NCBI RefSeq assembly: GCF_030013205.1
Contig: NZ_CP122648.1
Strand: one strand, 5' to 3'
DNA length: 64,000 nt
DNA from: Escherichia coli
GTDB taxonomy: Bacteria; Pseudomonadota; Gammaproteobacteria; Enterobacterales; Enterobacteriaceae
Shown here: piece after piece, positions 2 to 8,453 of the stretch
How the letters are laid out: every line of letters starts with the position of its first letter
How positions within the stretch are numbered: position 1 is the stretch's first letter
Translations under genes and position numbers: made by a program
The notes under the pieces: model-generated
What the model was told of the DNA's origin: nothing
The model's database searches: none
What the model saw: the letters and a program-made list of their open reading frames with translations, nothing else

Positions 2-493
2 TTCAGTATCACTGACAATCTGATGCTGGAGCCACAACTGCAGTACACCTGGCAGGGACTTTCCCTGGATGACGGCCAGGATAACGCCGGTTATGTGAAG
101 TTCGGGCATGGCAGTGCACAACATGTGCGTGCCGGCTTCCGTCTGGGCAGCCACAACGATATGACCTTTGGTGAAGGCACCTCATCCCGTGACACCCTGC
201 GCGACAGTGCAAAACACAGTGTGCGTGAACTGCCGGTGAACTGGTGGGTACAGCCTTCTGTTATCCGCACCTTCAGTTCCCGGGGTGACATGAGCATGGG
301 GACAGCCGCTGCCGGCAGTAACATGACGTTATCACCGTCACAGAATGGCACGTCACTGGACCTGCAGGCCGGACTGGAAGCCCGTGTCCGGGAAAATATC
401 ACCCTGGGGGTACAGGCCGGTTATGCCCACAGCGTCAGCGGCAGCAGTGCTGAAGGTTATAACGGTCAGGCCACGCTGAATGTGACTTTCTGA
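2..493 (+). CDS. Autotransporter C-terminal (beta-barrel) end, antigen 43/Flu-like; 5' part lies before the window
   Basis: ORF open to window edge, ends ...GQATLNVTF with stop at 491-493; terminal aromatic residue typical of outer-membrane barrels; resembles Ag43 C-terminus from memory. Confidence 0.6.
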   Translation, partial: FSITDNLMLEPQLQYTWQGLSLDDGQDNAGYVKFGHGSAQHVRAGFRLGSHNDMTFGEGTSSRDTLRDSAKHSVRELPVNWWVQPSVIRTFSSRGDMSMGTAAAGSNMTLSPSQNGTSLDLQAGLEARVRENITLGVQAGYAHSVSGSSAEGYNGQATLNVTF

Positions 494-515
494 TAATCAG
501 GTCACTCCCCTTCAG

Positions 516-545
516 GCCCCGGCCATCATGACCGGGGCTTTTTAC
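516..545 (+). terminator. Rho-independent terminator after autotransporter gene
   Basis: GC hairpin ccccgg/ccgggg followed by T-run. Confidence 0.5.
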
Positions 546-753
546 TTTCAGGGAGCAACAGATATGCCTGGTTGTACATCACGTTTATTGCCCGAAGGCC
601 CTTTTGCTGCCAAATGGCATCTGAATCGATCACAGTTTGACCGGTTATTACCCGATCCCGATGGGGTTATTGGGTGATCTCCTTCCATAAAAATACGCAG
701 CTCGCCAGTGAAGGGCTTCTCAGACAATAAACGTCATTCATTTCATCGGTCAG

Positions 754-786
754 GCCGCGTCTTCTCCGGGAGACGCGGCTTTTTCA
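754..786 (+). terminator. Second hairpin plus T-run upstream of DUF932-like gene
   Basis: gccgcgtct / agacgcggc stem followed by ttttt. Confidence 0.4.
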
Positions 787-820
787 TTTATACCGCTAAC
801 TCATTCATAAGGAGCAAATC

Positions 821-1639
821 ATGCGATTAGCAAGTCGTTTTGGTCATGTAAACCAGATACGCCGTGACCGTCCGCTGACACATGAAGAACTGATGCACTA
901 TGTACCCAGTATTTTTGGGGAAGATCGGCATACCTCCCGCAGTGAACGCTATGCGTACATTCCCACCATCACCGTACTGGAAAGCCTGCAGCGGGAAGGT
1001 TTTCAGCCATTCTTCGCCTGCCAGACCCGCGTGCGCGATCCGGGCCGCCGGGGATACACCAGACACATGCTGCGTCTGCGGCGGGCCGGGGAGATAACCG
1101 GACAACATGTCCCTGAAATTATTCTGCTCAACTCCCATGACGGTACCTCCAGCTACCAGATGCTGCCGGGTTACTTCAGATTCGTCTGCCAGAACGGCTG
1201 CGTCTGCGGTCAGTCTCTGGGGGAAGTCCGTGTGCCCCACCGGGGAAATGTGGTGGACAGAGTCATTGAAGGGGCTTACGAGGTAGTGGGCGTTTTTGAC
1301 CGGATTGAGGAAAAGCGTGATGCCATGCAGTCTCTGGTCCTGCCGCCACCGGCACGTCAGGCGCTGGCACAGGCGGCACTGACTTACCGTTATGGTGACG
1401 AACATCAGCCGGTCACCACCGCCGACATTCTGACGCCACGACGCAGGGAGGATTACGGTAAGGACCTGTGGAGTGCATATCAGACCATCCAGGAGAATAT
1501 GCTGAAAGGCGGGATTTCCGGTCGCAGCGCTAAAGGAAAACGTATCCACACCCGTGCCATTCACAGCATCGACACGGACATTAGGCTCAACCGCGCATTG
1601 TGGGTGATGGCAGAAACGCTGCTGGAGAGCCTGCGCTGA
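821..1639 (+). CDS. DUF932-family island protein (YfjQ/YafZ-like)
   Basis: 272-aa ORF with RBS aaggag; translation resembles K-12 cryptic-prophage YfjQ/YafZ proteins (recall). Confidence 0.65.
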   Translation: MRLASRFGHVNQIRRDRPLTHEELMHYVPSIFGEDRHTSRSERYAYIPTITVLESLQREGFQPFFACQTRVRDPGRRGYTRHMLRLRRAGEITGQHVPEIILLNSHDGTSSYQMLPGYFRFVCQNGCVCGQSLGEVRVPHRGNVVDRVIEGAYEVVGVFDRIEEKRDAMQSLVLPPPARQALAQAALTYRYGDEHQPVTTADILTPRRREDYGKDLWSAYQTIQENMLKGGISGRSAKGKRIHTRAIHSIDTDIRLNRALWVMAETLLESLR

Positions 1640-1730
1640 TGCTGTTTCCCTGAAAGTGCAGCCCTGACTCACGTCTGTACCAGTCCCCAGGCATTCTTCC
1701 ATTCATTTGCTTTTTATAAGGAATAATCTC

Positions 1731-2216
1731 ATGACAACCTCTTCGCATAATTCCACCACACCTTCTGTTTCCGTAACCGCTGCATCAGGGAATAACCAGT
1801 CTCAACTGGTTGCCACTCCCGTCCCTGATGAACAGCGCATCAGTTTCTGGCCGCAGCACTTTGGCCTCATTCCACAGTGGGTGACCCTGGAGCCCCGTAT
1901 CTTCGGCTGGATGGACCGTCTGTGTGAAGACTACTGCGGTGGTATCTGGAATCTGTATACCCTGAACAACGGCGGGGCATTTATGGCACCCGAACCGGAT
2001 GACGATGATGACGAAACATGGGTACTGTTCAATGCCATGAACGGTAACCGCGCTGAAATGAGCCCGGAAGCCGCCGGTATTGCCGCCTGTCTGATGACGT
2101 ACAGCCATCATGCCTGTCGTACGGAGTGTTATGCCATGACGGTCCATTATTACCGGCTGCGGGATTACGCCCTGCAGCATCCTGAATGCAGCGCCATTAT
2201 GCGCATCATCGACTGA
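1731..2216 (+). CDS. Antirestriction protein, KlcA/ArdB family (YfjX/YafX-like)
   Basis: ORF 1707-2216; start chosen at MTTSSH; acidic stretch DDDDDE; position before radC-like gene as in CP4-type islands. Confidence 0.6.
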   Translation: MTTSSHNSTTPSVSVTAASGNNQSQLVATPVPDEQRISFWPQHFGLIPQWVTLEPRIFGWMDRLCEDYCGGIWNLYTLNNGGAFMAPEPDDDDDETWVLFNAMNGNRAEMSPEAAGIAACLMTYSHHACRTECYAMTVHYYRLRDYALQHPECSAIMRIID

Positions 2217-2230
2217 GCCGGAGAAGCACA

Positions 2231-2707
2231 ATGCAACAACTTTCCTTTCTGCCCGGAGAGATGACAACCAGAGAGCGCAGTCTCATTCTGCGGGCCCTGA
2301 AAACCCTGGACCGCCATCTTCATGAACCCGGTGTGGCCTTCACCTCCACGCATGCGGCACGGGAATGGCTGATTCTGAACATGGCAGGACTGGAGCGGGA
2401 AGAGTTCCGGGTACTGTATCTGAACAACCAGAATCAGCTGATTGCGGGTGAAACCCTCTTCACCGGCACCATCAACCGCACGGAGGTCCATCCCCGGGAA
2501 GTGATTAAACGTGCCCTGTACCACAATGCCGCTGCCGTGATACTGGCACACAACCACCCGTCCGGTGAAGTCACTCCCAGTAAGGCAGACCGGCTTATTA
2601 CGGAACGTCTGGTACAGGCACTGGCCATGGTGGATATCCGGGTGCCGGACCATCTGATAGTCGGTGGCAGCCAGGTTTTCTCCTTTGCCGAACACGGTCT
2701 GCTTTAA
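2231..2707 (+). CDS. RadC-like JAB-domain protein (YeeS/YkfG/YfjY family)
   Basis: Motif HNHPSG...PS..D (JAMM-like) in translation; start at MQQLSFLPGE. Confidence 0.7.
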   Translation: MQQLSFLPGEMTTRERSLILRALKTLDRHLHEPGVAFTSTHAAREWLILNMAGLEREEFRVLYLNNQNQLIAGETLFTGTINRTEVHPREVIKRALYHNAAAVILAHNHPSGEVTPSKADRLITERLVQALAMVDIRVPDHLIVGGSQVFSFAEHGLL

Positions 2708-2775
2708 CCCGTCACCGTCACAACCACATCACACCTGTTTTCACTTTTATCTTCTGTCTTCAGAGGTATCCCACC

Positions 2776-2997
2776 ATGAAAATTATCACCCGTGGTGAAG
2801 CCATGCGCATTCACCGTCAGCATCCGGCATCCCGTCTTTTTCCGTTCTGCACCGGTAAGTACCGCTGGCACGGCAGCACTGAGGCATATACCGGTCGTGA
2901 AGTGCAGGATATTCCCGGTGTGCTGGCCGTGTTTGCTGAACGCCGTAAGGACAGTTTTGGCCCGTATGTCCGGCTGATGAGTGTAACCCTGAACTGA
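2776..2997 (+). CDS. YeeT/YkfH/YpjJ-family small protein (DUF987)
   Basis: 73-aa ORF MKIITRGEAMRIH... near-identical in my recollection to K-12 YeeT. Confidence 0.7.
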   Translation: MKIITRGEAMRIHRQHPASRLFPFCTGKYRWHGSTEAYTGREVQDIPGVLAVFAERRKDSFGPYVRLMSVTLN

Positions 2998-3015
2998 GTC
3001 AGGAAGGGAATTCTG

Positions 3016-3660
3016 ATGAGCAGAATTATCACCACCACCGTGTATACGCTGGATGAACTTTCCTGCCCGGCACGGGAAAAAGCCCGCGACGGGTACCGTC
3101 AGCATCATGCTGACAGCAACTGGTATGAAAACGTGTATGAAGACTTCAGGGAGGTCTGTGACATTTTCGGGATTAACCTCCGCCAGCGTGTTATCCGGCT
3201 CAGCAGTGGCAGGTTTATGGAAGAGCCGTGCATCTGGTTCAGCGGATTCTGCAGCCAGGGGGACGGAGCCTGTTTTGAAGGACGCTGGCACTGGCAGTCA
3301 GCAACAGCCAGGAGAATCCGGGAGTATGCCCCACAGGACCGTGAAATTCATCGTATCGCGGATGCCCTGCAGTCGGTACAGAAGCGTAACTTCTGGCAGT
3401 TACAGGCTGAAATCAGTCACCGGGGACGTTACTGCCATCCGTACAGCATGGATATCACCGTCACCCGGAACAGTCCGACTGGTCAGGTAATGACAACCGA
3501 TGCGGAAGCCGCTGTCAGCGAAGCCCTGCGCGACCTGGCCTTCTGGTTGTACCGTCAGCTGGAAAACGAGTACGACTGGCTGACCTCAGACGCCGCTGTG
3601 GATGAGGCCCTTCTCATCAACGAATACACCTTCACCGAAGCCGGTCTGCGCGCCGGCTGA
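3016..3660 (+). CDS. Hypothetical Cys/His-rich 214-aa protein, unassigned
   Basis: Clean ORF with RBS aggaagg 8 nt upstream of ATG; sits between yeeT-like and cbeA-like genes where K-12 clusters have no gene (recall). Confidence 0.5.
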   Translation: MSRIITTTVYTLDELSCPAREKARDGYRQHHADSNWYENVYEDFREVCDIFGINLRQRVIRLSSGRFMEEPCIWFSGFCSQGDGACFEGRWHWQSATARRIREYAPQDREIHRIADALQSVQKRNFWQLQAEISHRGRYCHPYSMDITVTRNSPTGQVMTTDAEAAVSEALRDLAFWLYRQLENEYDWLTSDAAVDEALLINEYTFTEAGLRAG

Positions 3661-3709
3661 CTCGTCATCGTTAAACTATCATTCACCGATTTTCTGTGAG
3701 GATTTTATC

Positions 3710-4078
3710 GTGTCAGACACACTCCATGAAACAAATTATCCCGACGACAACAACGACCGCTCCTGGTGGGGGCTACCCTGCACCGTGACGCCCTGTTTCA
3801 GGGCACGTCTGGTGCAGGAAGGGAACCGGTTGCATTACCTTGCAGACCGTGCCGGTATCAGAGGCCGGTTCAGCGACGCGGATGCGTACCATCTGGACCA
3901 GGCCTTTCCGCTGCTGATGAAACAACTGGAACTCATGCTCACCAGCGGTGAACTCAGTCCCCGCCATCAGCATACCGTCACGCTGTATGCAAAAGGGCTG
4001 ACCTGCGAAGCCGACACCCTCGGCAGTTGTGGCTACGTTTATATGGCTGTTTATCCGACGCCCGAAACGAAAAAGTAA
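3710..4078 (+). CDS. Type IV antitoxin, CbeA/YeeU/YfjZ/YafW family
   Basis: 122 codons from GTG 3710; translation closely matches K-12 CbeA (WWGLPCTVTPCF..., LYAKGLTC...) from memory. Confidence 0.75.
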   Translation: MSDTLHETNYPDDNNDRSWWGLPCTVTPCFRARLVQEGNRLHYLADRAGIRGRFSDADAYHLDQAFPLLMKQLELMLTSGELSPRHQHTVTLYAKGLTCEADTLGSCGYVYMAVYPTPETKK

Positions 4079-4167
4079 ATAATCAGAATAACCTTCTGCT
4101 CCGGCCAGGTGCTTTCACCACACCACTTTCCCATTTCTCATCTCTGCATATCAGGAAAATCTTCAGT

Positions 4168-4545
4168 ATGAAAACATTACCTGTATTACCCGGGCAGGCG
4201 GCCGGTTTACGCCCGTCTCCGGTTGAAATCTGGCAGACACTGCTTACCAGACTGCTGGACCAGCATTACGGCCTCACGCTGAATGACACGCCGTTTGCCG
4301 ATGAACGTGTGATTGAGCAGCATATTGAGGCAGGCATATCACTGTGTGATGCGGTGAACTTTCTCGTGGAAAAATACGCGCTGGTGCGTACCGACAAGCC
4401 GGGATTCAACGCCTGTACCCACTCTCAGTTAATAAACAGCATCGATATCCTCCGGGCCCGCCGGGCAACAGGCCTGATGACCCGCGACAATTACAGAACG
4501 GTGAACAATATCACCCGGGGTAAACATTCGGAGGCGAAACGATGA
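4168..4545 (+). CDS. Type IV toxin, CbtA/YeeV/YkfI/YpjF family (cytoskeleton inhibitor)
   Basis: MKTLPVLPGQAA... matches K-12 CbtA N-terminus and length (about 125 aa); directly downstream of the antitoxin. Confidence 0.75.
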   Translation: MKTLPVLPGQAAGLRPSPVEIWQTLLTRLLDQHYGLTLNDTPFADERVIEQHIEAGISLCDAVNFLVEKYALVRTDKPGFNACTHSQLINSIDILRARRATGLMTRDNYRTVNNITRGKHSEAKR

Positions 4546-5030
4546 AACTGACCCTGACACTGGAAGCCGACAGTATTAATGTGCAGGCACTGAACATGGA
4601 GCGAATTGTTGTTGACGTCGATGGTATTGAGCTCGCTGAACTGATTAATAAGGTCGCTGAAAACGGTTATTCACTCCGCGTGGTGGATGCTCCCGAACAG
4701 CAGACAACGGATTCTCCACCATCGTTTACGGCCCTTACCGGCATACGCTGCAGTACCGCACATATCACGGAAAAGGATAACGCCTGGCTGTACTCGCTGT
4801 CACACCAGACCAGTGACTTCGGTGAATCAGAATGGATTCATTTCACAGGTAGCGGATATCTGTTACGTACCGATGCGTGGTCATATCCGGTTCTGCGGCT
4901 TAAACGCCTGGGGCTGTCAAAAACGTTCCGTCGTCTGGTTGTCACACTCATCCAACGTTATGGCGTCAGTCTCATTCATCTGGATGCCAGCGCTGAATGT
5001 CTGCCGGACCTGCCCACTTTCGACTGGTAA
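4542..5030 (+). CDS. YeeW-like protein downstream of the toxin
   Basis: 162-aa ORF whose ATG overlaps the cbtA stop (ATGA); same position as yeeW in CP4-44-type clusters. Confidence 0.5.
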   Translation: MKLTLTLEADSINVQALNMERIVVDVDGIELAELINKVAENGYSLRVVDAPEQQTTDSPPSFTALTGIRCSTAHITEKDNAWLYSLSHQTSDFGESEWIHFTGSGYLLRTDAWSYPVLRLKRLGLSKTFRRLVVTLIQRYGVSLIHLDASAECLPDLPTFDW

Positions 5031-5041
5031 CCAGGAACAAC

Positions 5042-5239
5042 ATGAAATCATTAACCACAGAAACCGCACTGGATATTCTGATTGCGTGGCTACAAGACAA
5101 TATCGACTGCGAATCGGGAATTATCTTTGACAACGATGAGGATAGAACGGATTCGGCAGCACTGTTGCCCTGTATCGAACAGGCCAGAGAGGATGTCCGT
5201 ACCCTGCGTCAGCTGCAGTTTCTGCAACAGAACCGGTGA
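5042..5239 (+). CDS. Small acidic hypothetical protein (65 aa)
   Basis: ATG at 5042 preceded by aggaac; followed by a terminator. Confidence 0.35.
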   Translation: MKSLTTETALDILIAWLQDNIDCESGIIFDNDEDRTDSAALLPCIEQAREDVRTLRQLQFLQQNR

Positions 5240-5323: not shown

Positions 5324-6166
5324 ATGTCTGAAATCACAGCCTCTCGTCCGGAAGTGGTCAACGGGCATACGGACGTTATCTGCTCAACCAGTATCCGCCA
5401 CATTCTGGCTGTACGAAAGAGTACATTGCTGCAAATCGACACACTTATCCGGCAACTGGCTGAAATATCAGCAATGACAGAAAGTATTGGAGGTAAAACG
5501 GCTCTGGACTGGGCCATGAAACAGGATTTTCGCTGCGGTTGCTGGCTGATGGAGAAACCGGAAACCGCAATGAAAGCCATCACACGCAATCTTGATCGCG
5601 AACTCTGGCGTGATCTGATGCAACGTTCCGGGTTGCTGAGTCTGATGGATGCGCAGACCCGGGACACATGGTACAGGTCACTGGAATATGATAATTTTCC
5701 GGAAATCAGCGAAGCGAACATTCTGAGCACATTTGAACAACTGCACCAGAACAAAGATGAAGTGTTTGAACGGGGAGTGATCAACGTCTTCAAAGGGCTG
5801 AGCTGGGATTACAAAACCAACTCACCCTGTAAATTTGGCAGTAAAATTATCGTCAACAATCTGGTGAGGTGGGACCAGTGGGGATTTCATCTTATCAGTG
5901 GAATGCAGGCAGATCGCCTGGCTGACCTGGAAAGAATGTTGCATCTGCTCAGCGGTAAACCGATCCCCGACAACCGGGGGAATATCACCATTAATCTGGA
6001 TGACCACATACAGTCCGTTCAGGGTAAAGGACGCTATGAAGATGAGATGTTCATCATTAAATACTTTAAGAAGGGATCTGCACACATCACTTTCAAAAGG
6101 CTGGAGCTGATTGACAGAATTAACGATATAATAGCTAGGCACTTTCCTTCTGTGCTCTCAGCCTGA
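5324..6166 (+). CDS. Hypothetical 280-aa island protein (possibly DUF4942-like)
   Basis: ORF with RBS aaaggaa; last gene before the att repeat; family assignment is from memory only. Confidence 0.45.
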   Translation: MSEITASRPEVVNGHTDVICSTSIRHILAVRKSTLLQIDTLIRQLAEISAMTESIGGKTALDWAMKQDFRCGCWLMEKPETAMKAITRNLDRELWRDLMQRSGLLSLMDAQTRDTWYRSLEYDNFPEISEANILSTFEQLHQNKDEVFERGVINVFKGLSWDYKTNSPCKFGSKIIVNNLVRWDQWGFHLISGMQADRLADLERMLHLLSGKPIPDNRGNITINLDDHIQSVQGKGRYEDEMFIIKYFKKGSAHITFKRLELIDRINDIIARHFPSVLSA

Positions 6167-6276
6167 CCCCGAGTTTGATTCCCTTTCGATATCAAAAGGG
6201 ACTGCGGGTACAAAAGAGGGTACATCTTTCACCAAACCAAACAAAATAAACTAATATCAACATGATAGAAGCATTC

Positions 6277-6298
6277 TTCGATTCCGAGTCCGGCACCA
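6277..6298 (+). repeat. 3' fragment of tRNA-Phe (ttcgattccgagtccggcacca): island att direct repeat, not a full tRNA gene
   Basis: Matches T-arm/acceptor end of E. coli tRNA-Phe; no tRNA body upstream; accessory genes stop here and the K-12-like cadC upstream region follows. Confidence 0.7.
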
Positions 6299-6309
6299 AA
6301 TTCATATAA

Positions 6310-6340
6310 ACGGACCTCCACGGAGGTCCGTTTTTCGTTT
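6310..6340 (+). terminator. Rho-independent terminator (probably the native pheU terminator)
   Basis: cggacctcc / ggaggtccg hairpin followed by tttttcgttt. Confidence 0.6.
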
Positions 6341-6914
6341 CAGGACGCCACAATTTAAGCGTTCTGCCTAAAAATCATTTCTACCGAACTCAACCAAATT
6401 CTCCCCACAACACCAGCATTTTGCGGGTATATCCCAATTCGGGAAAATTTGTTCCTGAGCTATAGCGCTGACTGACGTGAAATGTCGTGCGACCCCGTGA
6501 TGCTGTTGAATGTCAAATGACGTCATCAGGAGCGTAACGCATCCATAAAGCACAACACCGGTCTGAACGCCGACTGATGAGATTTTCTGAATGAGAACAA
6601 AGAGAAATGTATCAGTCCGCTTGCTCATGCAAAGACTAACAATCCATAAAAATAGTAAGCGCGCCGGGCAATTTCCCATGGATTATTTTCTGAACATTTT
6701 TCTTTGGCAAAGATGATGAATTTTGATGATAAGGAATATTACTTCTGGTTCTCAGTAAAATCCTTTCGTAATACTATGTAATCAAGAAGTTTATGGCTGG
6801 TAAAAATAACGTCTTGCATTCACCAATAATATGTAAATAAAACCATCTATAGATGGTAAAAATAGGTTGTGGCAATTATCATTGCATCATTCCCTTTTCG
6901 AATGAGTTTCTATT

Positions 6915-8453
6915 ATGCAACAACCTGTAGTTCGCGTTGGCGAATGGCTTGTTACTCCGTCCATAAACCAAATTAGCCGCAATGGGCGTCAACTTACCCT
7001 TGAGCCGAGATTAATCGATCTTCTGGTTTTCTTTGCTCAACACAGTGGCGAAGTACTTAGCAGGGATGAACTTATCGATAATGTCTGGAAGAGAAGTATT
7101 GTCACCAATCACGTTGTGACGCAGAGTATCTCAGAACTACGTAAGTCATTAAAAGATAATGATGAAGATAGTCCTGTCTATATCGCTACTGTACCAAAGC
7201 GCGGCTATAAATTAATGGTGCCGGTTATCTGGTACAGCGAAGAAGAGGGAGAGGAAATAATGCTATCTTCGCCTCCCCCTATACCAGAGGCGGTTCCTGA
7301 CACAGATTCTCCCTCCCACAGTCTTAACATTCAAAACACCGCAACACCACCTGAACAATCCCCTGTTAAAAGCAAACGATTCACTACCTTTTGGGTATGG
7401 TTTTTTTTCCTGTTGTCGTTAGGTATCTGTGTAGCACTGGTAGCGTTTTCAAGTCTTGATACACGTCTTCCGATGAGCAAATCGCGTATTTTGCTCAATC
7501 CACGCGATATTGACATTAATATGGTAAATAAAAGTTGTAACAGCTGGAGTTCCCCGTATCAGCTCTCTTACGCGATAGGCGTGGGTGATTTGGTGGCGAC
7601 ATCACTTAACACCTTCTCCACCTTTATGGTGCATGACAAAATCAACTACAACATTGATGAACCGAGCAGTTCCGGTAAAACATTATCTATTGCGTTTGTT
7701 AATCAGCGCCAATACCGTGCTCAACAATGCTTTATGTCGGTAAAATTGGTAGACAATGCAGATGGTTCAACCATGCTGGATAAACGTTATGTCATCACTA
7801 ACGGTAATCAGCTGGCGATTCAAAATGATTTACTGGAGAGTTTATCAAAAGCGTTAAACCAACCGTGGCCACAACGAATGCAGGAGATGCTCCAGCAAAT
7901 TTTGCCTCATCGTGGTGCGTTATTAACTAATTTTTATCAGGCACATGATTATTTACTGCATGGCGATGATAAATCATTGAACCGTGCCAGTGAATTATTG
8001 GGTGAGATTGTTCAATCATCCCCAGAATTTACCTACGCGAGAGCAGAAAAAGCATTAGTTGATATCGTGCGCCATTCTCAACATCCTTTAGATGAAAAAC
8101 AATTAGCAGCACTGAACACAGAAATAGATAACATTGTTACACTACCGGAATTGAATAACCTGTCCATTATATATCAAATAAAAGCGGTCAGTGCTCTGGT
8201 AAAAGGTAAAACAGATGAGTCTTATCAGGCGATAAATACTGGCATTGATCTTGAAATGTCCTGGCTAAATTATGTATTGCTTGGCAAGGTTTATGAAATG
8301 AAGGGGATGAACCGGGAAGCAGCTGATGCATATCTCACCGCCTTTAATTTACGCCCAGGGGCAAACACCCTTTACTGGATTGAAAATGGTATATTCCAGA
8401 CTTCTGTTCCTTATGTTGTACCTTATCTCGACAAATTTCTCGCTTCAGAATAA
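6915..8453 (+). CDS. cadC: CadC, membrane-integrated ToxR-like transcriptional activator of cadBA
   Basis: 512 aa; N-terminal winged-helix DNA-binding domain, one transmembrane segment, periplasmic sensor; matches K-12 CadC. Confidence 0.95.
   Translation: MQQPVVRVGEWLVTPSINQISRNGRQLTLEPRLIDLLVFFAQHSGEVLSRDELIDNVWKRSIVTNHVVTQSISELRKSLKDNDEDSPVYIATVPKRGYKLMVPVIWYSEEEGEEIMLSSPPPIPEAVPDTDSPSHSLNIQNTATPPEQSPVKSKRFTTFWVWFFFLLSLGICVALVAFSSLDTRLPMSKSRILLNPRDIDINMVNKSCNSWSSPYQLSYAIGVGDLVATSLNTFSTFMVHDKINYNIDEPSSSGKTLSIAFVNQRQYRAQQCFMSVKLVDNADGSTMLDKRYVITNGNQLAIQNDLLESLSKALNQPWPQRMQEMLQQILPHRGALLTNFYQAHDYLLHGDDKSLNRASELLGEIVQSSPEFTYARAEKALVDIVRHSQHPLDEKQLAALNTEIDNIVTLPELNNLSIIYQIKAVSALVKGKTDESYQAINTGIDLEMSWLNYVLLGKVYEMKGMNREAADAYLTAFNLRPGANTLYWIENGIFQTSVPYVVPYLDKFLASE

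Follow-up and report, generated by a model that had tools for sequence, protein, structure and literature searches.

Gene X, an apparently original gene of the CP4-type island module of Escherichia coli, and its possible role in the entry of mobile elements

We analysed a 64,000-nucleotide stretch of Escherichia coli DNA (RefSeq assembly GCF_030013205.1, contig NZ_CP122648.1), hereafter called the window. Between a YeeT-like gene and a gene for a CbeA-family antitoxin, the window holds an open reading frame (ORF) encoding a 214-amino-acid protein, which we refer to as gene X and protein X. The surroundings of gene X are the usual CP4-type island module, with all genes on the + strand in the order DUF932, KlcA, RadC, DUF987 (the YeeT-like gene), X, CbeA, CbtA, DUF5983, DUF957 and DUF4942 (Table 1); product names in the module follow those that RefSeq gives to an identical copy. 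An earlier note on this DNA had described a well-formed ORF with a strong ribosome-binding site (RBS), and our inspection agreed: the ORF starts with ATG, 18 nt past the stop codon of the YeeT-like gene (2995-2997), and a Shine-Dalgarno-like sequence precedes it at 3001-3009. Between X and its neighbours, we found no promoter-like or terminator-like sites on the + strand.

The note had described gene X as inserted between the yeeT-like and cbeA-like genes. To survey its prevalence, we compared the X ORF by megablast with 5426 complete E. coli genomes. At least 80% of the gene was covered in 1942 of the 5426 genomes, and matches overall numbered 3913 places in 2682 genomes. Identical or near-identical copies of X carry product names in RefSeq and UniProt, and the gene is routinely annotated in these islands, an outcome that the note had named as one that would refute its view. 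Gene X is an ordinary, already catalogued gene, and it appeared anomalous because K-12 had served as the reference.

The note was correct about K-12 itself, where no gene separates the YeeT-like gene from the antitoxin gene: the spacers measure 73 nt in CP4-44 and only 18 and 37 nt in CP4-6 and CP4-57, respectively. However, modules without X carry remnants of it. The CP4-44 spacer (locus L006, 3040-3112) contains GGGAATTCTG, which is part of the RBS, and ATGAGCAGAATTATC, the first 15 nt (five codons) of X, and the deletion runs from after codon five to beyond the X stop codon. In an O157:H7 module lacking X (locus L002, 4001-4113), the YeeT stop codon is fused to the final 113 nt of X, after which the usual spacer and CbeA continue. 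These two junctions differ, and therefore indicate at least two independent deletions of X. The GC content of X (0.566) and its GC content at third codon positions (0.665) are like those of the flanking module genes. Taking the scars together with the matching composition, we conclude that X was lost elsewhere rather than inserted here, that it is original to the CP4-type island module, and that the K-12 modules, like those of O157:H7, represent a reduced state. We hold it to be nearly certain that X is a real, selected and original module gene belonging to a large mobile-element family. On this evidence, the three well-studied CbtA/CbeA-type modules of K-12 are reduced forms, and studies of these toxin-antitoxin (TA) systems in K-12 never included X.

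Gene X is intact, codes for a protein and evolves under purifying selection. Records from 613 contigs contain the exact protein, and its homologues number 1888 in a 90%-clustered collection and at least 3642 clusters at 50% identity (E ≤ 1e-3). Pairwise Nei-Gojobori comparison of three E. coli alleles gave ratios of nonsynonymous to synonymous substitution (dN/dS) of 0.18-0.32 for X, a level similar to those of KlcA (0.14-0.31) and CbeA (0.15-0.32). Purifying selection on X was weaker than on YeeT (0.02-0.07) and DUF932 (0.05-0.09). When we compared X with another allele, 16 of the 17 differences fell outside conserved columns.

Table 1. Gene X, its module and the sequence features discussed in the text, with positions in the window.
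Feature	Position	Strand	Remarks
DUF932 gene	821-1639	+	Upstream part of module
KlcA-type antirestriction gene	1731-2216	+	Upstream part of module
RadC/JAB gene	2231-2707	+	Upstream part of module
YeeT-like DUF987 gene	2776-2997	+	Directly upstream of X
Shine-Dalgarno-like AGGAAGGGA	3001-3009	+	6 nt 5' of the X ATG; read from sequence
Stretch kept in the K-12 CP4-44 yeeT-cbeA spacer (5' deletion scar)	3006-3030	+	From alignment
Gene X (protein X), ATG-started 214-aa ORF	3016-3660	+	From ORF list and raw sequence; matches PHROG 5162
Family signature GFxSQGDGAxFxG, codons 77-89	3244-3282	+	Loop between two strands in the AlphaFold2 model
H141 codon, in the Y139-x-H141 motif	3436-3438	+	His in 113/119; sole near-invariant His
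Last 113 nt of X, kept in O157:H7-type modules (3' deletion scar)	3548-3660	+	Unannotated in those modules
CbeA/YeeU-family type IV antitoxin gene	3710-4078	+	GTG start
CbtA/YeeV-family toxin gene	4168-4545	+	
DUF5983/YeeW gene	4542-5030	+	Downstream part of module
DUF957 gene	5042-5239	+	Downstream part of module
DUF4942 gene	5324-6166	+	Last in module

The note had been unable to place the translation in any family. This stood as far as characterised families are concerned, with nothing found among Pfam-A, NCBIfam, PADLOC, Protein Data Bank (PDB) entries or known folds, but PHROG 5162 matches the protein over its full length (E = 1.1e-35; residues 2-210 of 214 aligned to profile positions 2-195 of 201). 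PHROG 5162 is annotated as being of unknown function. RefSeq records of 95%-identical genes use the name DUF8835, which we adopted from those records and not from a model match. A search of Pfam-A, in a copy without the DUF8835 model, returned only noise for X and for all 119 aligned homologues; NCBIfam gave no match for X, and PDB sequence and profile searches gave only noise at E > 0.3.

The hidden Markov model and structure searches that the note had proposed thus uncovered nothing characterised. An AlphaFold2 model built from the 119-sequence alignment showed an alpha+beta protein with a predicted local distance difference test score (pLDDT) of 96.3 and a predicted template modelling score (pTM) of 0.89. 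It superimposed on family members at 60% identity in the AlphaFold Database (AFDB) with a template modelling score of 0.98, and the matches obtained from AFDB were family members or uncharacterised proteins; fold searches revealed no characterised structural relative. The family is single-domain and about 210 aa long, with lengths of 200-225 aa for nearly all of the 150 top-ranked cluster representatives. Its median net charge is -16 and its median isoelectric point 4.7; the window protein has a net charge of -8. The PHROG 5162/'DUF8835' family is a very large, uncharacterised group of single-domain, acidic proteins of mobile elements. One AFDB entry (A0A4P9WST2), a 969-aa 'DUF4326 domain-containing protein' attributed to the chytrid Blyttiomyces helicus, includes a domain 59% identical to X; contamination with bacterial sequence or a merged gene model is the probable cause.

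We assessed conservation in a MAFFT alignment of the 119 diverse full-length homologues. Within the family signature, G77, F78, Q81, G82, D83, G84, A85, F87 and G89 were each kept in at least 110 of the 119 sequences. Other conserved positions were E14, L15, D43, G52, P106, D108, Y139, R172, W177, Y179, L182, N202, F206 and G210. The signature set as a whole (GFxSQGDGAxFxG, Y139-x-H141, R172, Y179, N202, F206 and G210) was kept in at least 107 of 119 sequences at each position, and all of it is present in the window protein. E. coli and alphaproteobacterial X proteins share about 60% identity, and even phage homologues at 25-34% identity keep GFxSQGDGA, D43, Y139, H141, R172, Y179, N202, F206 and G210.

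The genomic contexts of X differ between hosts. E. coli and Salmonella have the order DUF987-X-CbeA-CbtA. The order in Klebsiella michiganensis (loci L009-L011, 7368-8996) and S. enterica diarizonae (locus L023, 6054-8084), the latter with two tandem CbeA genes, is DUF987-CbeA(-CbeA)-X-CbtA, which places X between antitoxin and toxin, directly upstream of the toxin gene. We scanned one genome per species, seeding the search with a motif, and obtained at least 545 X loci; we then counted clustered neighbouring ORFs at the best 80 of them (L024-L103), nearly all alphaproteobacterial and at 58-63% identity. Here X belongs to a co-directional block, listed as an ArdC-like zincin (29 loci), a ParB-N protein (about 712 aa; 41 loci), two small uncharacterised proteins (34 and 38 loci) and X; further members are a strawberry-notch protein of about 1457 aa (55 loci), a toprim protein (41 loci) and a DUF2493 protein (34 loci). 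Product names for this block came from a plasmid record. The strawberry-notch protein, a methyltransferase-helicase, carries an NPPF methyltransferase motif that we read from its sequence. At 79 of the 80 loci, including every one of the 79 non-enteric loci, no CbeA or CbtA homologue was found within 8 kb of X.

Directly upstream of X in 38 of these 80 loci lies a gene of a family of 138-150 aa whose members start with MADYFTHFSCLLDVG. The family is likewise found upstream of X at two loci outside these 80: at L004 (7592-8008) its gene overlaps the start of X, and at L003 (6061-6510) an IS110 element stands between the two. The family, for which NCBIfam returned no match, may encode a partner protein of X. 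We also considered a shared or paralogous upstream partner across elements, and rejected it: neither the genes directly 5' of X in phage-like contigs nor those at this position in alphaproteobacterial plasmids are related to X, the phage and plasmid genes are not related to each other, and only the 138-150-aa alphaproteobacterial family recurs.

Plasmids and phages also carry X. Entries in PLSDB place X on MOBP/MPF_T conjugative replicons near genes for single-stranded DNA-binding protein (SSB) and RadC. In Tistrella, X lies 1.9 kb upstream of NikA/relaxase, in the same orientation and on the side opposite the relaxase; under the standard T-strand model, this orientation would allow transcription from the incoming strand. 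We found X in 83 phage records, among them those of jumbo phages of Caulobacter, Escherichia, Klebsiella, Salmonella and Erwinia, where it is often within the terminal repeats. The homologue in Klebsiella phage Muenster (locus L104, 3055-3666) is numbered 006 and lies 3 kb from the end of the genome, and in other phages X stands in arrays of small early-type genes. None of the phage loci inspected had CbeA or CbtA beside X.

These contexts lead us to favour, tentatively and at somewhat short of even confidence, a role for X in establishment or counter-defence, as a factor produced early on, when a mobile element arrives in a new cell. We suggest this role because X keeps company with anti-restriction, SSB, ParB-like and methyltransferase-helicase genes, apparently in first-entering DNA of conjugative elements, and lies in phage terminal repeats. 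Its neighbours in this niche are KlcA and RadC in the island, and ArdC, ParB-like proteins, SSB and orphan methyltransferase-helicases in other elements. Counter-defence genes and uncharacterised families are known to be over-represented in leading regions (PMC11541004). With the identity of X and its function considered as one blended reading, we regard the whole as evenly balanced.

Under the early-entry proposal, X would be made as the element enters its new host cell and would probably act as a soluble cytoplasmic protein. A putative polar site, predicted from conservation and formed by Q81 and D83 in the GFxSQGDGA loop together with Y139, H141, R172, N202 and D43, might bind or modify a conserved component of the host or of the element. 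A specific binding or catalytic site, as opposed to DNA mimicry, is suggested because the polar residues are deeply conserved and identity reaches 60% across bacterial classes. X resembles KlcA/ArdB, ArdA, ArdC, PsiB and Ocr in its genomic niche, lying 800 nt downstream of the KlcA-type gene in the window, and in being small, soluble and acidic. Unlike DNA mimics, however, X has a deeply conserved set of polar motifs, and it is far less acidic than they are, at the net charges given above for the window protein and the family median. We infer that X works neither through Cys/His metal clusters nor as a highly charged DNA mimic, and that it is not a true antitoxin.

A bolder version of this proposal, which we consider conceivable though rather doubtful, is that the X family is a structurally unprecedented class of early-entry or counter-defence protein, in which the Q81/D83/Y139/H141/R172/N202 site acts on a conserved host target and for which the name 'antitoxin' is wrong. 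If true, such a class would be common to conjugative elements, integrative islands and jumbo phages across Proteobacteria. The family is a reasonable experimental target, being large, conserved, confidently modelled and without a structural relative, in a gene niche of entry and counter-defence.

Several observations weigh against an early-entry or counter-defence role. The functional assignment draws on gene neighbourhood alone, and our literature search found no experiment on any member of the family. X showed no sequence or fold similarity to solved anti-defence proteins, including those of the groups it resembles in niche, and no PADLOC defence-system model matched at E ≤ 1 (0 families). 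Every enterobacterial locus seen has X beside or inside the CbeA/CbtA pair, so the role of X may be linked to that pair. The alphaproteobacterial block includes possible replication or partition genes (ParB-like and toprim). The placement in Tistrella agrees with how leading regions are defined in the literature, but it is one locus. Finally, the window allele carries W26G (codon 26, 3091-3093), whereas 84 of 118 homologues and other E. coli alleles have Trp there.

X might instead serve the DNA metabolism or maintenance of the element itself, in processing of incoming single-stranded DNA, priming of replication, support of partition, or as an enzyme acting on nucleotides or small molecules. 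We consider this unlikely, although X is conserved beside genes for ParB-N, toprim, methyltransferase/helicase, SSB and RadC proteins. The invariant residues Q81, D83, Y139, H141, R172 and N202, which resemble an active or ligand site and persist at 25% identity, would suit such a function, and a substrate or target that has itself been conserved is suggested by the identity of about 60% that E. coli proteins share with alphaproteobacterial ones. By contrast, X shows no similarity to known folds of nucleases, primases, partition proteins or nucleotide enzymes, it has repeatedly been lost from E. coli islands that persist, and phages carry it among early accessory genes and not in replication modules.

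Less probable still, in our judgement, is that X belongs to the CbtA/CbeA type IV TA system as an accessory, be it as second antitoxin, as modulator or as regulator. Its constant adjacency to the pair in enterobacteria and its position directly upstream of the toxin gene in K. michiganensis and S. enterica diarizonae speak for this, as does a read-through X-CbeA fusion whose junction we found in 455 of the 5426 E. coli genomes. But X is widespread without CbeA/CbtA, as the non-enteric and phage loci show, and it has been deleted at least twice from modules that kept the pair. Moreover, the K-12 CbtA/CbeA pairs without X are functional TA systems according to PMC5371832. CbeA (PF06154) is the immediate neighbour of X in an operon-like module, but it has 122 aa to the 214 of X; BLASTP of X against the window CbeA gave no alignment at E ≤ 100, and X had no PF06154 match and was unlike any antitoxin family in Pfam.

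The fusion allele arose through a change of the X stop codon from TGA to TTA and a 34-nt deletion in the spacer, giving an in-frame product of 343 aa (locus L015, 3001-4032; locus L017, 892-1923). Three of its substitutions, P106T, R172C and W188R, affect conserved positions, and X of this allele is annotated by PGAP as a pseudogene. Because of these substitutions and the pseudogene mark, we regard the allele as decayed rather than as a functional fusion, and we rejected it, as weak, as Rosetta-stone evidence for a physical partnership between X and CbeA.

The database name of X implies such a role in the pair, but this antitoxin name is a generic label from COG, borne by RelB too. Some copies are instead labelled 'antitoxin of the YeeV-YeeU system'. 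BLAST transfer is carrying the names into phage genomes. We found no experimental basis for the antitoxin name in the literature. Profiles of RelB, PhdYeFM or other antitoxins matched neither X nor the 119 homologues in Pfam-A, nor X in NCBIfam, and with RelB-type antitoxins X shares only the product name, being about 2.5 times longer. In the literature, the generic label was seen applied to RelB of a plasmid of enterotoxigenic E. coli and to a Yersinia ruckeri protein of unspecified identity. Searches for DUF8835, WP_000094916 and 'antitoxin of the YeeV-YeeU' found no literature on them. We considered Supplement 3 of Samuel et al. as a possible record of X and set it aside, since its mixed labels fit Phd/RelB equally well. 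The X homologue of Klebsiella phage Muenster is labelled 'YeeU-like antitoxin', and a note in the record states that the label came from a BLAST hit to a mislabelled E. coli X; here an annotation error is spreading from one database to another. Two RefSeq records (NZ_CM190135.1 and NZ_CP079772.1) give the product as 'DUF8835 domain-containing pootine', in which 'pootine' is apparently a typographical corruption of 'protein'.

It is very improbable that X in the window island is a decaying relic without a current function. Such a view could draw on W26G and on L111I (codon 111, 3346-3348; Leu in 115 of 118 homologues) in the window allele, on the frequent deletion, truncation or fusion of X in E. 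coli, and on its dN/dS being above those of YeeT and DUF932. However, the reading frame and RBS are intact, the identical protein occurs on hundreds of contigs, dN/dS is well under 1, and all the deeply conserved core residues are present.

The note had also proposed that clusters of Cys and His could bind metal. The window protein has 6 Cys and 6 His in its 214 residues, but among the 119 homologues the residues cited were mostly poorly kept (C17, 2/119; H30, 8/119; H31, 2/119; C48, 37/119; C72, 33/119; C79, 20/119). C86 was kept in 75 of 119 and was otherwise mostly Ser, and the number of Cys per family member ranged from 0 to 10. No conserved set of three to four Cys/His ligands was present in the alignment, H141 alone being near-invariant. 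The Cys/His clusters are allele-specific and not a feature of the family. A zinc-finger-like metal-binding protein is thus the least credible of the alternatives, with no match to zinc-finger or metal-site families in Pfam and no fold match to metalloproteins, even though H141 with D83, D43 or D108 could in principle ligate one metal ion.

An antisense ORF of 195 aa (2704-3291, - strand) overlaps the YeeT-like gene and the 5' half of X; it probably represents a shadow ORF cast by the GC-rich coding strand. Between the end of the module at 6166 and the start of cadC at 6915 lies the interval 6167-6914. ARAGORN found no tRNA genes in the whole window. We considered a remnant of a pheU/tRNA attachment site near cadC and rejected it, as the 3' end of tRNA-Phe had no match at two or fewer mismatches and the window has no tRNA gene. 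In strain 98-3133, a segment 100% identical to window positions 2700-4100 is present, yet the module there adjoins yghD/pitB and not cadC.

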